Assembly (NCBI RefSeq): GCF_000374525.1
Contig: NZ_KB894577.1
Location: forward strand, 154,126-186,125
DNA: 32,000 bases
DNA from: Amorphus coralli DSM 19760
Lineage (GTDB): Bacteria > Pseudomonadota > Alphaproteobacteria > Rhizobiales > Amorphaceae
Reading direction: 5' to 3'
The translations under genes were made by a program, and so were the position numbers. Positions 3,790-26,825 of this stretch are shown here, piece after piece (the stretch's first letter is position 1; each line of letters begins with the position of its first letter). The notes below the pieces were generated by a model that was not told where the DNA came from, did not search any database, and saw only the letters and a list, made by a program, of their open reading frames with translations.

Positions 3790-4368
3790 ATGAAAAGACT
3801 GATCCTCGCCGCGGCCGCACTGGCGGTTCTGTCGCTGCCGGCCTCCGCCCAGACCCCGCTCACGCGGAACGAAATCATCAACAACCTGCAGAACGTCGAG
3901 GTGCATCGCACGCAGATCACCGCCGAGGAACTGCGTCAGCAGGCGCTCGACAACATCCGGCTGCATCCGGGTGACGACGCCACCACCGACCTGCCGGCCG
4001 AGTCCGAACTCGCGAGGCTCCGCCAGTTCATCGTCGAGATCACCTTCGACTTCGATTCCTCCCGCATCCGGCCGGAATCCTACGAGTCGCTGGGTCTCAT
4101 TGCCGACGCCCTGCACACCGTCTATCTCGGCGGCGACCGCTTCCTGGTGATCGGCCACACCGATGCCAAGGGCGCTCGCGAGTACAATCTGAAGCTCAGC
4201 CAGCGCCGCGCCGACGCCATCGTCGAGGCCCTGACGACGACCTTCAACGTGCCGGCCAACATGGTCGTGCCAGTCGGCCTCGGCGAGGAAGACCTGCGCG
4301 ATCCGGCCAACCCGTACAGCGAGGTCAACCGCCGGGTGCAGCTGATCAACCTGGGTCCGGCCCAGTAG
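3790..4368 (+). CDS. OmpA-family peptidoglycan-associated protein
   Basis: Signal peptide plus a C-terminal OmpA_C motif (FDFDSSRIRPES...IGHTDAKGAREYNLKLSQRRADAIVEAL...NRRVQL). Confidence 0.85.
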   Translation: MKRLILAAAALAVLSLPASAQTPLTRNEIINNLQNVEVHRTQITAEELRQQALDNIRLHPGDDATTDLPAESELARLRQFIVEITFDFDSSRIRPESYESLGLIADALHTVYLGGDRFLVIGHTDAKGAREYNLKLSQRRADAIVEALTTTFNVPANMVVPVGLGEEDLRDPANPYSEVNRRVQLINLGPAQ

Positions 4369-12580: not shown

Positions 12581-12722
12581 CCCCTCACGCGGAGTTCGCT
12601 CCGCTCACTCGCTCCGGGTGGGCGGCCTCCGGCCGGCGCACGGTCGCGCGCTGGCGGGCGCAGTCCGGGAAGGCCGTGCCTTTTTCTCCGCTCACCCCCG
12701 CGAAGGCGGGGGTCCAGGGCGG
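12581..12722. repeat. mosaic repeat block (family C module + one family A hairpin unit) between g11 and g12
   Basis: CCCCTCACGCGGAGTTCGCTCCGCTCAC...CGGCGCACGGTCGCGCGCTGG recurs at 14555, 16992, 21322 and 23655. The family A unit lies at 12688-12720. Confidence 0.85.
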
Positions 12723-21773: not shown

Positions 21774-23132
21774 TCAGACCCGCCGGATCGCCGGGCGGCT
21801 GACCGGCCCCAGCATCAGCGCGGTGATCGCCCAGACCAGCGCGTCGAGCCGGTCCGGCGAGCGCCCGTTCGCGGTGCCGTCCGGGCCGAAGCCGCAGAGC
21901 TCGTCCTCCAGCTCCGGGAATGCGCCGGCATGGCGCACCCGGCCCTGGGCGTAGAGCGTCGCCACCGGCTCCGCCCGCAGCCACTTGCCGCGGCTCGCCC
22001 GCACGCTCGTCACCGGCACGCCGGCATCCACCTGGCGGATCACCGCCGCCACCATGTCGCCGCCCTGGTTCACCTCGGCGACCAGCGCGTCCGCCTGGAA
22101 CCGCCGGTAGGCCGCCACCGCCTTCGCCGCCCACACCGCCGGTGCCGCCGCCGCCACCGTCTCGTCGGCCAGCACGTAGCCGATCCCGTCCGCCGCGATG
22201 CCCGCCGCCACGATCCCGCACACCGAGGCCCTGCCGCCCGCCGCCGGCGGGTCCACCGCCACCACGATGCGGCTCATCTCCGGCGCGCCGTCGACCCGTG
22301 CCCGCTCCACCGTCGCCCGGCTCCACAGCGCGTCCTCCCGGTCGGTGAGGATCTCACCGTCCAGCTCCTGCCGGCCGAGCCGGGTGCCGCGATAGCGCCC
22401 CACCACCCGCTCCAGGAAGCCGGGCGCCAGATTGGCCGCGTTGTCCTTCGTCGGCATCCGCGCCACTTCCGTGCGCGGCGCCTCCATCAGCCGTGCCAGA
22501 AGCGGGATCGGCCGCGGCGTCGTCGTCACCACCTGGCGCGGCCGCTCGCCGAGCCTGAGCGCGAACTGCAGCATGTCCCACGCCTCCTCCGCCAGCCGCC
22601 ACTTGGCCAGCTCGTCGGCCCAGGCGGCGCCGAACTGCGGCCCGCGCAGGCTTTCCGGATCGTCGGCGGAAAACAGCTCCGCCACCGCGCCGTTCTTCCA
22701 TTCCAGCCGCCGGCGCGAGGGCTGCCACAGCGGCCGCTCGTCGGCGGCATGCACCGACAACAGCCCCGACACGCCCTCCACCATCACGCCGCGCGCGTCG
22801 ATCAGGGTTTCGCCGACAAGCGCGATCCGGCCGACGGGCGCGGAGGCGAACCCGTCGCGGCCCAGCGCCATGCCCTTCACCCATTCCGCGCCCGCCCGCG
22901 TCTTGCCGGCGCCACGCCCGCCCAGGATCAGCCAGACGGTCCAGTCGCCGTCGGGCGGCAGCTGCTCGTCGCGGGCCTGGAACATCCATTCCCGCGCCAG
23001 CCACGCCAGCGTCTCCGGCGGCAGCTCGGCCAGGAACGCGGCGCGCTCATCCGGGTCGAGCCCGTCGAGCGAGCCGATCAAGGCGGTCCGCAAGGTCCTG
23101 TCTGAGGGTGTCGATGTCCGGCCGGTGTCCAT
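21774..23132 (-). CDS. g2: GTA large terminase (RcGTA g2-like)
   Basis: Walker A motif LILGGRGAGKTRAGAEWV and a conserved N-terminus LIGSLDGLDPDERAAFLAEL. The start at 23132 is chosen by homology and overlaps the g1 3' end; alternative TTG at 23093. Confidence 0.9.
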   Translation of the reverse strand: MDTGRTSTPSDRTLRTALIGSLDGLDPDERAAFLAELPPETLAWLAREWMFQARDEQLPPDGDWTVWLILGGRGAGKTRAGAEWVKGMALGRDGFASAPVGRIALVGETLIDARGVMVEGVSGLLSVHAADERPLWQPSRRRLEWKNGAVAELFSADDPESLRGPQFGAAWADELAKWRLAEEAWDMLQFALRLGERPRQVVTTTPRPIPLLARLMEAPRTEVARMPTKDNAANLAPGFLERVVGRYRGTRLGRQELDGEILTDREDALWSRATVERARVDGAPEMSRIVVAVDPPAAGGRASVCGIVAAGIAADGIGYVLADETVAAAAPAVWAAKAVAAYRRFQADALVAEVNQGGDMVAAVIRQVDAGVPVTSVRASRGKWLRAEPVATLYAQGRVRHAGAFPELEDELCGFGPDGTANGRSPDRLDALVWAITALMLGPVSRPAIRRV

Positions 23133-24057
23133 GCGCCGCCTCTCCGCCGTCTGCCTGCGCCTTGCGGTCGAGGGCGAGCAGGATGTCCAGAGTGCGCGCC
23201 AGCGCCGCCAGCACCCTGGTGTCGCGTTCCGCGTCCTCGGCGGCATCGGGATCGAAGCGCGCCTCGATGGCCGATATCCGCGCCTCGAACACCCGGTAGA
23301 GCCGGGCGATCATCGCGGCCCGGTCCGACGGCGAGCGGTGCAGCGCCCGGCCCTGCGGCCGGCGCGGCAGTGCGGGTTTGGATGGAGAGTTCTTGCCGCG
23401 CAGATGCGCTGAATTCTCTCCACTCACGCCGATCTCGCTTCGCTCGCCGGCACCGCGAGGGCGGCCTGGTTCTTCAGGTCGCAAAGCCGGACGGCGAACC
23501 GGTTCCCACTTCGCCTTGCTTTGCTCGGGCGGCGCGCAGTCGCGGGCTGGTGGGTGCTGTCCGGCGGGGCCCAGTTCGGGGCCCTCCGCCGCCTCCCCCA
23601 AACGCCGCTCCTTCCCGCGAAGGCGGGAATCCAGGGCTTCAGGCTTCGGACCGTATTGTTTGCCCCTCCCGCCGAGTTCGCTTGCGCTCACCGGCTCCGG
23701 GTGGGCGCCCTGACCGGGCGGCGCGCAGTCGCGCGCTGGTGGGTGCTGTCCGGCGGGGCCCAGTTCGGGGCCCTCCGCCGCCTCCCCCAAACGCCGCTCC
23801 TTCCCGCGAAGGCGGGAATCCAGGGCTCCAGACTCCGAACCCGGCGGGCCGGCGTCCGTCCCGTCCAGCCCCGTGCGGCCCCTGACCCTTGGCGGCCTGA
23901 GCGTCCGGTCCCAGCCCTCCCGGCGGGCGCGGTCGCGCAGCCCGGATTCGGACATGCCGTAGCGGTCGCCGATCTCCCGCAGCGTTCCCACACCCGCCTC
24001 GAAGGCGGCTCTTGCGGCCGCCCAGTCCGGTCTGAACGACGGAAGGGGCTGGTCCAT
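23047..24057 (-). CDS. g1: GTA g1-like (small-terminase-type) protein carrying a roughly 430-bp in-frame repeat-derived insertion
   Basis: N-terminal HTH-like module MDQPLPSFRPDWAAARAAFEAGVGTLREIGDRYGMSESGLRDRARREGWDR and C-terminal helical module AMIARLYRVFEARISAIEARF...DIDTLRQDLADRLDRLA are in one uninterrupted frame. They are separated by translated repeats. Confidence 0.55.
   Translation of the reverse strand: MDQPLPSFRPDWAAARAAFEAGVGTLREIGDRYGMSESGLRDRARREGWDRTLRPPRVRGRTGLDGTDAGPPGSESGALDSRLRGKERRLGEAAEGPELGPAGQHPPARDCAPPGQGAHPEPVSASELGGRGKQYGPKPEALDSRLRGKERRLGEAAEGPELGPAGQHPPARDCAPPEQSKAKWEPVRRPALRPEEPGRPRGAGERSEIGVSGENSAHLRGKNSPSKPALPRRPQGRALHRSPSDRAAMIARLYRVFEARISAIEARFDPDAAEDAERDTRVLAALARTLDILLALDRKAQADGGEAAHGHRPDIDTLRQDLADRLDRLARRARPG
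23405..23832. repeat. repeat block inside g1: family C pieces, family B hairpin (23481-23524), and a 112-bp segment duplicated with a 189-bp period (23527-23638 and 23716-23827), each ending in a family A unit
   Basis: The two 112-bp copies differ at a single position by eye (CGCGGGCTGG vs CGCGCGCTGG). Confidence 0.9.
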
Positions 24058-24099
24058 GATGCGCGTGTCCCTCTGCCAGAAATGAAACCTGTTCACGTC

Positions 24100-24491
24100 G
24101 CGAGCACGAACGGAAAACCGCGAGAGCACTCTTCCTGCGCTCGCTCGACCGGCGCGTGGTCGCGCACTGGTTGGCGTGATCCGGCAAGATGGTGGTCGGT
24201 TCGGGAGGAGCCCGCCCCATCCTCCGCTCATTCCCGCGAAAGCGGGGATCCATAAGGCCTGTCGGCGAGCCCGATGACATGCAAGATGTCTCCCCGGCCA
24301 AACCAAACGCCGCTCATTCCCGCGAAGGCGGGAAACCAGGGCGGCACGCCGCAGCCGGAAAATTCCACCTCTGACCATCCCGGGAACCGCAGTTACCGGC
24401 GACCAAAGCTCAGGTCGATGCGGGGCGAATGGGAGTTCACGGAACTTCGGAGACCGAAGCCCTGGATGCCCGCCTTCGCGGGAATGTGCGG
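24100..24491. repeat. composite mosaic copy IV (degenerate B hairpin 24100-24144, C remnant, A unit, A doublet 24310-24491) 43 nt upstream of the g1 start
   Basis: Module order matches copies I-III. Confidence 0.85.
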
Positions 24492-24597
24492 ACAAATAGG
24501 GATCGCCGAGGCACACCAGCCGCCCGTCCCGATCCGGGACCACGCCCGGCGCCCTCCTTCCGGAAGCCCCCGGCCGCAGCTGTCCGACGATGCCTGA

Positions 24598-24626
24598 ACC
24601 CTAGCGAACCAGCGTCACGATGTCAA
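24598..24626 (-). promoter_or_regulatory. candidate sigma70-type promoter facing the GTA cluster
   Basis: Minus strand: A-tract, TTGACA (24626-24621), 17-nt spacer, TAGGGT (24603-24598). It sits at the AT-rich islet / repeat boundary, about 540 nt upstream of g1. Confidence 0.3.
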
Positions 24627-24703
24627 GGATTTTTTTCCTAGTTATCTACGTGCCTTCGCTTAACGAAGTTGGCCAGAGATCCCCAAGTGTAAAATGCCGA
24701 ACA

Positions 24704-25315
24704 TCACTCCTTAAGATCAGGAAGAATACTCCCGAAAATTCCTGGAACAGCTGGGAGACCAAGTGCACCTATCCCGAATGGCGCTGAAATGGGCGATGTG
24801 GATTGGCGATACATAAGCGCGGCGACTACGCTGCTCTTTGAAAGGGCCTCGCAGAGGCTGTGCATTTTTATTTTAAGGGCATCAACCTCCATAACTTCGT
24901 CATAGAAGCGCTTTGCCGGCCATACTTCGTCAGGCACATCAAGCTTGCTACTAGCCTTTACCACGAGAAATCGAACGGAGCCCGCATCATCATTCTCCGG
25001 ACCAAACAGGTCATGAGCCATCATATTCCTAATCGGCGACTTATCTGAAATTCTTTGGAGCGCGGATTTATAGGACGTTATCTCATCTCTATTTAGAGGC
25101 GAAATATCGACTAAAGTCTTAGAAATTTTGATTTTATTACTAAGTGTAATGTTTTTACATAGGATTATTCTTTGGATATCGGTTAATTCAAGACTTTTTG
25201 AGATGGCGTTGTTCAACGAGCCTTCCATGATAGCCCAGCGTTGAAGGAAGAATCCAACGAGAGCACATGCAGCAATTTGCGAAGGAGTATTTTCAGGAAG
25301 TCGCACTGACCGCAC
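24704..25315 (-). CDS. HEPN-motif protein (putative RNase toxin / abortive-infection effector) in an AT-rich islet
   Basis: 203-aa ORF (GTG start; alternative starts downstream). R-x4-H motif with the canonical Asn (IRNMMAHD, residues 96-101). Hydrophobic Gly-rich C-terminus FGIGALGLPAVPGIFGSIL. Base composition is clearly AT-richer than the flanks. Confidence 0.5.
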   Translation of the reverse strand: MRSVRLPENTPSQIAACALVGFFLQRWAIMEGSLNNAISKSLELTDIQRIILCKNITLSNKIKISKTLVDISPLNRDEITSYKSALQRISDKSPIRNMMAHDLFGPENDDAGSVRFLVVKASSKLDVPDEVWPAKRFYDEVMEVDALKIKMHSLCEALSKSSVVAALMYRQSTSPISAPFGIGALGLPAVPGIFGSILPDLKE

Positions 25316-25354
25316 CCCAATTCATTGAAGAAGGCGCTCAATTATAATAGGGGC

Positions 25355-25525
25355 CTATCGATCCGCGATATATTCAAGTATCTCTCGGATCGAGGTTATC
25401 TCGAATCTTATCCGGGTAATCTCATCAACCAAATAGCTAAGTTGTATTCCAGGCATATTGTCAATAGAGACGCCCTCAGTCTGTTTAGCCCTCTCTTTAA
25501 TGACCTCTTCCGCATTGTGGTGCAC
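25355..25525 (-). CDS. small acidic hypothetical protein (56 aa) upstream of the HEPN gene
   Basis: Not in the ORF track (below the size cut-off). GTG 25525 lies 5 nt after AGGAGG. Sequence: VHHNAEEVIKERAKQTEGVSIDNMPGIQLSYLVDEITRIRFEITSIREILEYIADR. Confidence 0.35.
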   Translation of the reverse strand: MHHNAEEVIKERAKQTEGVSIDNMPGIQLSYLVDEITRIRFEITSIREILEYIADR

Positions 25526-25597
25526 AGCATCCTCCTATGATTGTTGTATAGGGATGATACCATCGACACCTTCCATGTCACGCCCATCCCCTTCACT

Positions 25598-26008
25598 CCG
25601 CTCATTCCCGCGAAGGCGGGAATCCAGGGCTGCGGGCATCAGGGCAAGCTGTCGTAGAGATCGCTCCAGGTCGGGTTCAGCCCTTCGATCAGTCGAAGCT
25701 TCCAGCGCCGGCGCCACTTCTTGATCTGCCGCTCGCGCACGAAGGCGGCCTCGCGGGTGTCATGCACCTCGTACCAGACCAGCCCGGCAACGCCGTAGGT
25801 TCGGGTGAAGCCCGGCCTGAGCCTGGTCCGATGCTCGTGGACGCGTCGGGCAAGATCGTCCGTATGGCCCGTATAGAGCGTCCCGTTCGGCTCGCTGGCG
25901 AGAATGTAGACGTAGAAGGCCATCGGTCCGCCGCCGCTGCTGTCCGGCAGTCTACAGCATCCTGCAGCGCAAGCCGCCCTGGATTCCCGCCTTCGCGGGA
26001 ATGAGCGG
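25598..26008. mobile_element. GIY-YIG gene flanked by perfect 33-bp terminal inverted repeats of family A (candidate autonomous/parent unit of the repeat family)
   Basis: 25598-25630, CCGCTCATTCCCGCGAAGGCGGGAATCCAGGGC, is the exact reverse complement of 25976-26008. Only the GIY-YIG ORF lies between them. Confidence 0.5.
25639..25923 (-). CDS. GIY-YIG (URI-domain only) nuclease family protein
   Basis: 94 aa. MAFYVYILASEPNGTLYTGHTDDLARRVHEH...E.QIKKW is the classic COG2827-type GIY-YIG core. Confidence 0.9.
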   Translation of the reverse strand: MAFYVYILASEPNGTLYTGHTDDLARRVHEHRTRLRPGFTRTYGVAGLVWYEVHDTREAAFVRERQIKKWRRRWKLRLIEGLNPTWSDLYDSLP

Positions 26009-26055
26009 CGTTTGGGGTGGCGCGCGGTGCCTCCTCAACCGGCCTCCCCCCACCC

Positions 26056-26559
26056 TCACGCCACCTCGTCGGTGCGTTCCCGGTCCCGGCGCTTTACCGC
26101 CCGCTCGTTCGCCCAATCCAAAAGATTGGCCTCTACGACGGTCCCGGTGGTGACCTGTCCCCGCCGGTGCAGCCAGGCAGCCACTTCGGACCAGTCCCAG
26201 AGCGGCGCCTCCGACGAGACCTTGGCGACCGCAGCCGGGAACCCCTGTCCCCGCTCGCCCCGGGCAAAAAGACTGACGGCCTGACGGCTGATCCCGGCGC
26301 GCTCGGCGATGTCGGAAGCCGTGACCAGCGCATCGGGCTCGATCCGCTCGATGCGCGCGCCGGCCCGTTCCACATCGGCGACGGCCGAGGCGATCGCGTG
26401 GACGAGATTCTTCGCTTCCCGGTCGAAGTCCAGCAGGATCCGGCCGCGCACCACCGACACCGTCGCGTCGTCGCAGCCAGCCTCGTAGAGGCGGTCCTCC
26501 AGCGCATCGGATGCATGATCCAGCCCCGACGCCACGATGATGAATCTATGCGCCTTCAT
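26056..26559 (-). CDS. DNA-binding protein: HicB-like N-terminal domain plus HTH (putative antitoxin)
   Basis: ATG 26559 is preceded by GGGAGG. 167 aa. HTH segment LVTASDIAERAGISRQAVSLFARGER. It lies 17 nt downstream of the HicA-like ORF. Confidence 0.5.
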   Translation of the reverse strand: MKAHRFIIVASGLDHASDALEDRLYEAGCDDATVSVVRGRILLDFDREAKNLVHAIASAVADVERAGARIERIEPDALVTASDIAERAGISRQAVSLFARGERGQGFPAAVAKVSSEAPLWDWSEVAAWLHRRGQVTTGTVVEANLLDWANERAVKRRDRERTDEVA

Positions 26560-26575
26560 CGGCACCTCCCTGACA

Positions 26576-26803
26576 TCAATGCGCGCACCTCGCCGCCGCC
26601 CGGCGTATCGCCGCGGCATGATTGGCCGGACTCCGGGGCGTCGACCAGACGGAGATCCGGCACCCGGACCGGTCATGCTGCGGGCAGAGCAGCCGCCCCC
26701 AGCAGTGAGCGCTTCGGCCCGCAGCCTTGAACGTCCATCCGAGCGCCTCGAGTTCGGCCACCGCCGCCTCGATGTCCTTGTCCGGATGCCGGGGCCTGCG
26801 CAT
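26576..26803 (-). CDS. small HicA-like (alpha-beta3-alpha pattern) protein, putative toxin
   Basis: ATG 26803 is preceded by GGAGAG. 75 aa. DIEAAVAELEALGWTFKAAGRSAHCWGRLLCP...CRISVWSTP...NHAAAIRR resembles the HicA layout, with SAH in place of GSH. The family assignment is uncertain. Confidence 0.4.
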   Translation of the reverse strand: MRRPRHPDKDIEAAVAELEALGWTFKAAGRSAHCWGRLLCPQHDRSGCRISVWSTPRSPANHAAAIRRAAARCAH

Positions 26804-26825
26804 CGCTCTCTCCAATCTGGAGTAT

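Follow-up and report, generated by a model that had tools for sequence, protein, structure and literature searches.

An AT-rich islet upstream of the gene transfer agent cluster of Amorphus coralli, a probable right-end relic of an IS1595-family transposon with a HEPN-like cargo gene

Among insertion sequences (IS), the IS1595 family reportedly includes elements with passenger genes, which Siguier and colleagues are said to have described in 2009 as 'transporter IS' and whose subgroups are said to be marked '+' in ISfinder. IS elements with passenger genes are thus already known, as are HEPN toxins on mobile DNA; no report of a HEPN protein as IS1595 cargo was found in the literature on IS1595 passenger genes or on ISNwi1. 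HEPN proteins have been described as a four-helix up-down bundle in which the N-terminal part contains a conserved acidic residue and helices 2 and 3 are separated by a variable insert; the canonical signature is R-N-x-x-A-H together with the upstream acidic residue, and in Csx1 a β hairpin follows directly after the motif (PMC3710099). The locus compared with these systems here is located in a stretch of 32,000 nucleotides of Amorphus coralli DSM 19760 (contig NZ_KB894577.1, positions 154,126 to 186,125; to be referred to as the window). It is an AT-rich islet with an intact gene for a HEPN-like protein of 203 residues, and it is very probably the right-end relic of an IS1595-family transposon. 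The features that bear on this assignment are the following (window coordinates).

24641..25582, minus strand: AT-rich islet proper (~0.94 kb), 34-51% GC; homology to the syntenic locus L020 of Amorphus sp. MBR-141 stops at ~25582 and resumes at 24652.
24704..25315, minus strand: open reading frame (ORF) of 203 aa, HEPN-like cargo, GTG start, intact, with all family-invariant residues present.
25013..25030, minus strand: encodes R96-N97-M98-M99-A100-H101, a putative catalytic Rx4H motif of the HEPN type; R, N, A and H are the same in all 66 aligned members.
24640..24654, minus strand: degenerate remnant of a terminal inverted repeat (IR), GGCACGTAGATAACT on the gene strand, 50 nt past the stop codon and in the orientation of a right-end repeat (IRR).
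24567..24640, minus strand: conserved host flank past the IS end, starting with AGGAAAAAAATCC (24640-24627), which equals the direct repeat flanking the IS of L020.

The islet is set off from its surroundings by composition. The GC content in 200-nt windows over 24600-25599 is 33.5-51%, compared with 62-79% in the flanks and an average of ~69% for the whole window. The 500-nt window 25001-25500 has 40.6% GC, and all 500-nt windows outside 24501-25500 have at least 57.5%. The first-pass annotation, made from the DNA letters, had reported about 1 kb of AT-rich DNA in a GC-rich context and had related it to horizontally acquired defence islets. The observation holds, and the assignment of the islet as foreign DNA is supported. 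An assembly of the same strain in Logan contains a 1321-nt contig that equals window positions 24303-25623 at 100% identity and breaks exactly at the flanking repeats. No match to the islet DNA was found in plasmid, phage and viral-contig searches, and an Rfam scan of 23000-26500 gave no matches.

The 203-aa protein is a member of a sizeable family that carries no annotation. A word-indexed search finds only two distant homologues, and an exhaustive profile search finds 809 representatives (50% identity clusters) with E values of 1e-3 or below, 175 of them at or below 1e-30 and most of them 190-230 aa in length. The family thus comprises at least 809 such clusters. Neither Pfam nor NCBIfam has a model for it, and its members are without exception annotated as 'hypothetical protein'. 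It is mostly alphaproteobacterial, and all sources with a name belong to the Alphaproteobacteria (Roseibium aggregatum, Stellaceae and other metagenome-assembled genomes, MAGs); no members were found in phage, plasmid, or viral-contig collections. The window protein shares 28-39% identity with the sequences of a 66-member alignment, in which ten positions do not vary: Gly21, Glu31, Asn55, Lys61, Arg96, Asn97, Ala100, His101, Phe104, and Phe116. Distant paralogues are located inside related transposons, at L002 5212-5853 (plus strand, with RNDILH) and L020 1741-2337 (minus strand, with RNNIAH). After these two are added, Gly21, Glu31, Arg96, Asn97, and His101 are still invariant. The first-pass annotation had proposed the conservation of the Arg and His residues as a check, and both are invariant in the 66 members as well as in the two distant paralogues. 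The motif RNxxAH, invariant in the 66 members, thus appears to be beyond chance.

The context of the family was surveyed in eighteen related loci and contigs; the search for related loci used a 17-sequence subset of the alignment. A full IS1595-type transposase (DDE_Tnp_IS1595 and zinc ribbon) is located upstream of the family gene, on the same strand, in L003, L007, L014, L019, L020, and the P0003 contig, and C-terminal or zinc-ribbon fragments of the transposase are present in L002/L012, L006, and L008. L014 has perfect terminal IRs of 25 nt (GGGCAACTATATACTTGACAACGGA), between which lie the transposase, the family gene, and two unrelated ORFs. Equivalent IR pairs are found in L007 and L003, and the consensus of the terminal IR is GGGnAAyTATATACTTGACAAnGG. 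In L008, L009, L013, L015, and L018 the right-end IR follows the family gene at a distance of 26-113 nt, and in L019 the same IR precedes the transposase. A target duplication of 8 bp, GCTGCTTC, can be read from the sequence of L007. The family genes have a GC content below that of the host locus in every case.

There is also a second small gene in these elements. In nearly all relatives a very basic ORF of 50-60 aa, transcribed divergently and with the motif ..IM.RL..MPPKPH.., overlaps the 5′ end of the family gene, namely in L002, L003, L006, L007, L008, L009, L014, L018, and L019, and an equivalent 52-aa gene has been called on the contig of the closest relative, P0004. It has no Pfam match and is absent from the window. 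Examples are the following.

L003 5823-5987, minus strand: basic ORF.
L014 2823-2984, minus strand: basic ORF.
L019 4835-5020, minus strand: basic ORF.
L002 5118-5267, minus strand: basic ORF.

The canonical element therefore is, in order, a left-end IR (IRL), the transposase, variable small ORFs, the divergent basic ORF of ~55 aa, the HEPN-like gene, and the IRR. A family with a catalytic-looking HEPN signature is consistently the terminal cargo of IS1595-family transposons, beside a conserved micro-ORF. The relatives resemble the passenger-carrying IS1595 elements in the DDE_Tnp_IS1595 and zinc-ribbon transposase, the IRs of ~25 bp, the 8-bp target duplication (L007), and the extra genes between the transposase and the IRR. 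They differ in the nature of the passenger, a HEPN-like gene with a tiny divergent basic ORF rather than a resistance or metabolic gene. The window copy differs further, as it lacks the transposase and one end. L002 contains the distant paralogue and a true family member side by side as a tandem pair, and a divergent basic micro-ORF accompanies each of the two. Some copies of the family gene have decayed. The copy at L004 5953-6291 ends just after RNMMAHDLF, and in the copy at L005 528-993 the 3′ half (GVQFLVVKARG...) is inverted on the opposite strand, through either a rearrangement or a MAG assembly artefact.

The syntenic counterpart of the window is L020, in Amorphus sp. MBR-141. The GIY-YIG protein encoded next to the islet clusters at 90% identity or above with a protein of this strain. 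L020 and the window are 84% identical in the GIY-YIG region, 82% in the g1-like gene and the large terminase gene (TerL), and 87% in the portal gene, and the flanks of the site are 82-88% identical. Between the GIY-YIG gene and the head of the gene transfer agent (GTA) cluster, L020 has a complete IS1595-family element, which is flanked by the direct repeat TTAGGAAAAAAATCC.

L020 element: IRR at 1614-1640; 198-aa HEPN-like paralogue; 323-aa transposase; IRL at 3859-3891.

The paralogue in this element is 27% identical to the window protein (tblastn E value of 5e-7). Window positions 24567-24652 are 91% identical to L020 3879-3964, an 86-nt block that comprises the outer IS end, the flanking repeat, and host DNA. 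On the gene strand of the window, the stop codon is followed by 50 nt, then GGCACGTAGATAACT, AGGAAAAAAATCC, and TTGACATCGTGACGCTGG. The remnant GGCACGTAGATAACT matches the L020 IRR at 12 of 15 positions, as compared by eye. A left-orientation IR-like string just past the stop codon (GCATTTTACACTTGGGG) was considered as well and dropped as a chance match.

On the other side of the islet, the homology between the window and L020 ends at ~25582, inside an element resembling repetitive extragenic palindromes (REP-like) next to the GIY-YIG gene. Compared to L020, the window lacks the entire IS and also a HigA-like gene, and has the 0.94-kb islet instead. The HigA-like gene (L020 879-1193, plus strand; HTH_3, antitoxin type) is located between the GIY-YIG gene and the IS of L020. 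Its absence from the window is consistent with a deletion that took it together with the left part of the IS. The window has no second IR and no basic micro-ORF, so that one degenerate end and one copy of the flanking repeat are what the islet retains of a complete element with its transposase, two IRs, and target-site duplication. Because only one degenerate end remains, the islet is classified as a relic and not as a member of the IS1595 family. The first-pass annotation had considered it a defence islet of a kind it could not place; the islet can instead be placed as the IRR-proximal relic of an IS1595-family transposon.

The 203-aa ORF, with RNMMAH at residues 96-101 and a hydrophobic, Gly-rich C-terminus (residues ~177-198), is as the first-pass annotation described it. 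Its predicted pI is 8.44. The GTG codon at 25306 is an equally possible start, giving 200 aa, and is the start called on the Logan contig. The database gene call is 170 aa, from an internal TTG, and omits the N-terminal ALVGxFLQxWA segment. As this segment is conserved in the homologues, the long start (203 or 200 aa) is favoured.

An AlphaFold2 model of the protein, calculated on the deep alignment, has a pLDDT of 89.7 and a pTM of 0.79. Models from the single sequence or from four sequences had a pLDDT of 37 and were not usable. The predicted helices comprise residues 12-41, 46-54, 58-71, and 76-91, the last running into 93-101. With 46-71 counted as one helix, RNMMAH thus closes the third helix. 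The motif is followed in the model by three short strands (103-133), a 39-residue helix (134-172), and a low-confidence Gly-rich hydrophobic tail. The predicted order of these elements fits the HEPN description. The tail (residues ~173-203 in the window protein) is a family-wide, low-confidence, Gly/Leu-rich hydrophobic stretch with the consensus GGLFGLGLLGLL, followed by a Pro/acidic-rich segment in most family members; it is possibly a membrane or partner-binding peptide.

Compared with HEPN RNases such as Csm6/Csx1, AbiU2, AbiD/F, and AbiV, the protein has the Rx4H motif, in which Asn follows the Arg and a small residue precedes the His. It also shares with them an acidic residue that is invariant and located in an N-terminal helix, a predicted all-α core in which helix 3 ends with the motif, a β insert after the motif as in Csx1, and a gene on mobile DNA. 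The residues of the Rx4-6H pattern with its polar residue after the Arg, namely Arg96, Asn97, and His101, are invariant in the 66 members, as is Ala100. The protein differs from these RNases in that it lacks a partner domain such as CARF or MNT, matches no HEPN family significantly by profile or structure, and has a long C-terminal helix with a Gly/Leu-rich, Pro/acidic tail, and its gene sits in an insertion sequence rather than in a CRISPR, restriction-modification (RM), or prophage locus. Several sub-threshold matches point toward HEPN proteins. In a Pfam scan of the 66 members, only HEPN_RiboL-PSP (0.025) and Cas_Csm6_HEPN (0.1) were matched twice, and pEK499_p136, also a HEPN model, was matched by one member (0.07). 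The core profile picks Csm6′ in the Protein Data Bank (PDB entry 8pcw), aligned exactly on SxRNxxAH with a sub-threshold E value of 0.8, and the L020 paralogue matches three Csx1/Csm6 HEPN models in PADLOC with E values of 0.007-0.04. We consider it probable that these proteins constitute a new and divergent family of HEPN proteins, a membership that is proposed here rather than demonstrated. The family itself, its invariant residues, the transposon context, the synteny, and the IR remnant are shown by the data; the HEPN fold, the RNase activity, and the biological role are what we infer.

Taken together, a transposon relic that carries a HEPN-type RNase as cargo is the interpretation we favour, and we regard the two parts jointly as probable. 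The part on the transposon is the stronger, with high probability, and on balance the cargo is likely to be an RNase. In this model, an IS1595-family element with the 203-aa gene as cargo would have inserted at the A-rich target AGGAAAAAAATCC upstream of the GTA genes, in the orientation opposite to that of the L020 element. A later deletion would then have taken the left end, the transposase, and the adjoining host DNA, up to the REP-like element. The elements of the window and of L020 would be different ones, and the site a recurrent target, since the cargo proteins have 27% identity and the flanks have above 80%. The 203-aa ORF would represent, still intact, the cargo that characterizes this subgroup of transposons, with the invariant E...RNxxAH, and its product a HEPN-type, metal-independent RNase. 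In complete elements the cargo might serve as a latent toxin for retention of the element or in defence resembling abortive infection (Abi), with the divergent ~55-aa basic ORF as its regulator or neutraliser. In the window, the 203-aa gene stands alone.

Several observations weigh against this interpretation. The window has no transposase (tblastn of two IS1595 transposases finds nothing), and the IR remnant is short, degenerate, and below detection by the nhmmer IR model, having been found only through the synteny with L020. The window protein is 27-45% identical to the copies in complete elements, and for this reason its own element cannot be said to have been observed intact. On the side of the protein, Pfam, NCBIfam, PADLOC, and PHROGs contain no match to it, and the family consensus has no Pfam match. 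Foldseek against the PDB gives as its best match a helical protein that is not a HEPN protein (E value of 0.07, TM score of 0.29), with no HEPN protein in the top 50. Alignment of the family with an AbiU2 protein by hhalign has a probability of 5%, and there is no significant link in sequence or structure to any known HEPN family. Profile and model searches of the kind proposed with the first-pass annotation thus fail to place either of its two ORFs; in PADLOC-DB 2.0 neither matches any family at an E value of 1 or below. Sequence-profile searches of the PDB gave only spurious or sub-threshold matches. The best viral match in BFVD, a nameless phage protein (A0A4Y5TZQ9; Foldseek E value of 0.027, TM scores of 0.52/0.65), is not significant. 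Finally, an intact putative toxin without the conserved basic ORF speaks against a classical toxin-antitoxin (TA) mechanism. As the intact gene survives without that ORF, a constitutively toxic type II toxin is disfavoured. The lone gene is compatible with an Abi-like protein that acts by itself and is activated by a trigger, and equally with a relic so recent that it is still neutral.

Among the alternatives, the least improbable is a domesticated single-gene Abi RNase, similar to AbiD/F, AbiU2, or AbiV, that has been kept after the decay of the transposon and is unrelated to transposition. It overlaps with the favoured model except for the present role of the gene. The gene is intact with all the invariant residues although the transposase is lost, and other solo copies exist: L009 keeps an IRR without a transposase, and L010 and L016 have no transposase either. 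The neighbourhood in the window includes a PDC-M06A/B pair, and L008 has an AbiU2 HEPN gene nearby. Against these points, there is no match to a defence model and no family member in the phage and plasmid collections. Moreover, the truncated and disrupted copies in L004 and L005 indicate that decay is common, so the intactness of the window gene may reflect a recent event. We consider domestication a possibility, but an improbable one.

A non-nuclease role is less probable still. The protein could be a helical accessory or regulatory factor of the IS1595 subgroup that binds the transposase, the transposon ends, or RNA, with RNxxAH as a binding site. Its fixed place next to the IRR in many elements would agree with such a role, as would the lack of a significant HEPN match by sequence or Foldseek. 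The invariance extends to Lys61, Asn55, and the FxVxKA strand, as would be expected if a larger surface were conserved. However, many IS1595 elements transpose without such a gene, and the only recurrent sub-threshold matches of the family are HEPN models, aligned on the motif. The invariant R-N-x-x-A-H with an upstream acidic residue is also the canonical HEPN signature (PMC3710099). Together these points make the accessory factor an unlikely reading.

The remaining alternative is that of the first-pass annotation, in which the 203-aa protein and a small ORF upstream of it form a two-gene HEPN TA or Abi module. Two further features are relevant here.

25355..25525, minus strand: acidic orphan ORF of 56 aa that starts at a GTG codon; AGGAGG (25531-25536) precedes this codon by 6 nt.
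25554..25581, minus strand: sigma-70-like promoter match, GTGACA-16-TATCAT, with an extended -10; spans the junction between a REP-like element and the islet.

The acidic ORF with its strong Shine-Dalgarno (SD) sequence is present as that annotation stated, on the same strand as the 203-aa ORF and 39 nt from it. The predicted pI of its product is 4.98. Position-specific GC is compatible with coding and fails to discriminate this ORF from an antisense ORF of 71 aa (25325..25540) that covers it. Among 5.8 billion proteins the 56-aa ORF has no match other than itself, and tblastn finds no counterpart in the 18 related loci or in plasmids, nor any match in the plasmid, phage, and viral-contig searches. 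A likeness to the ~95-aa cargo ORFs of L002 and L007 was considered and rejected, as there is no similarity. The arrangement resembles that of HEPN-MNT (HepT/MntA) and other type II TA systems in that a putative RNase, small and basic, is preceded closely and on the same strand by a small acidic ORF. It differs from them in having no MNT domain and no conserved antitoxin, the upstream ORF being an orphan. The neighbour of the family gene in the relatives, by comparison, is different and divergent, so the conserved cognate antitoxin of a type II TA system is missing, and the two window ORFs are not conserved as neighbours in other genomes.

A type II TA or Abi pair expressed from the promoter at 25581-25554 is therefore quite unlikely: the close spacing, the strong SD, the promoter-like site, the pI values typical of an antitoxin and a toxin, and the coding-compatible GC pattern speak for it, and against it stand the absence of any homologue of the 56-aa ORF, the divergent basic ORF as the different upstream neighbour in all informative relatives including the closest (P0004), the antisense ORF on the same DNA, and the empty PADLOC result. 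We regard the 56-aa ORF as sequence specific to this lineage, with transcription from the junction promoter possible, and not as a conserved partner. Its translation stays possible in view of the SD, the junction promoter, and the acidic charge.

Returning to the transposon relic with its RNase cargo, the window copy is debris, and the part worth following is the family and its linkage to the transposons. Should the protein prove to be an RNase with a part in defence or in the maintenance of the transposon, the family would be a new one in the HEPN superfamily and its genes a new class of accessory genes for a simple IS family. A further proposal goes beyond the relic. The HEPN-like protein and the divergent basic ORF could be an integral accessory module of a widespread alphaproteobacterial IS1595 subgroup, with an RNase that promotes retention or spread. 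This could occur through addiction, through processing of the transposase mRNA, or through the exclusion of phages or GTA, and the solo copies would be domesticated survivors. The proposal is tentative, and we hold it to be rather improbable. If true, the module would be comparable to the late recognition of TnpB as the functional partner of IS200/IS605.

The GTA cluster is located on the minus strand, from 23246 down to 6715, and encodes TerL, the portal, the prohead protease, the capsid, head/tail completion proteins, the hub, and GTA_TIM. The islet had been described as lying directly upstream of this operon and as possibly coupled to it. The cluster is real and the 203-aa gene is co-oriented with it, but the adjacency is loose, with ~1.45 kb of DNA full of REP-like hairpins (five) between the gene and TerL. 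There is no convincing intrinsic terminator downstream of the 203-aa gene (RNA fold z of -1.7), and read-through into the GTA genes is possible as a result. Functional or regulatory coupling is nevertheless unlikely. At this site the sister genome carries another IS of the same kind, distinct from that of the window and oppositely oriented, and for this reason we regard the position of the islet as an insertion hot spot and not a regulatory design. The odd islet is thus explained as transposon debris, and the suggested functional link to the GTA is removed.

A candidate promoter, TTGACA-17-TAGGGT, is located at 24626-24598 on the minus strand (L020 3905-3933), in the 91% identical block just past the IS junction, and points to the GTA genes. 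It may be a native promoter, and its -35 hexamer would then have both IS insertions immediately upstream. An ORF of 498 aa that precedes TerL (23047-24543, minus strand) is probably an artefact. Its C-terminal ~105 residues correspond to a g1-like gene of 111 aa in the gene calls of L020. Further upstream the ORF runs in frame across a tandem duplication of 189 nt or 63 codons (23526-23652 and 23715-23841) with REP-like elements, and an N-terminal HTH-like segment starts at ~24054.

The REP-like hairpins belong to one family with the core CCCGCGAAGGCGGG and ~35-60 conserved nt. There are 11 copies in the window, compared to 0.14 expected, at 12697, 14789, 17643, 21731, 23614, 23803, 24233, 24319, 24469, 25607, and 25986. 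Seven of the 11 are grouped between the GTA head and the GIY-YIG gene. These elements yield spurious long ORFs (with peptides such as PAFAGMSG and DSRLRGNER) and break short-read assemblies. Two of them form an inverted pair that brackets the islet.

24454..24513, no strand: REP-like element, core CCCGCGAAGGCGGG, one arm of the islet-bracketing pair.
25576..25635, no strand: REP-like element, the other arm of the pair; abuts the upstream edge of the islet.

The second of these doubles as an arm of the pair around the GIY-YIG gene. This gene (25639..25923, minus strand) encodes a nuclease of 94 aa and is bracketed by a 39-nt inverted REP-like pair with 95% complementarity (25595-25633 and 25973-26011). 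The layout recalls that of REPtrons, in which RAYT genes are flanked by REPs, and the same gene and repeats are present in Amorphus sp. MBR-141.

Beyond the GIY-YIG gene is a complete PDC-M06 pair, a candidate defence or TA-like system (26056-26815, minus strand). The 79-aa ORF at 26576..26815 matches PDC-M06A (E value of 1e-22) and has a weak HicA-like match. The 168-aa ORF at 26056..26562 matches PDC-M06B (E value of 3e-30) and has a helix-turn-helix (HTH). The 341-aa ORF listed at this position is an over-extension.

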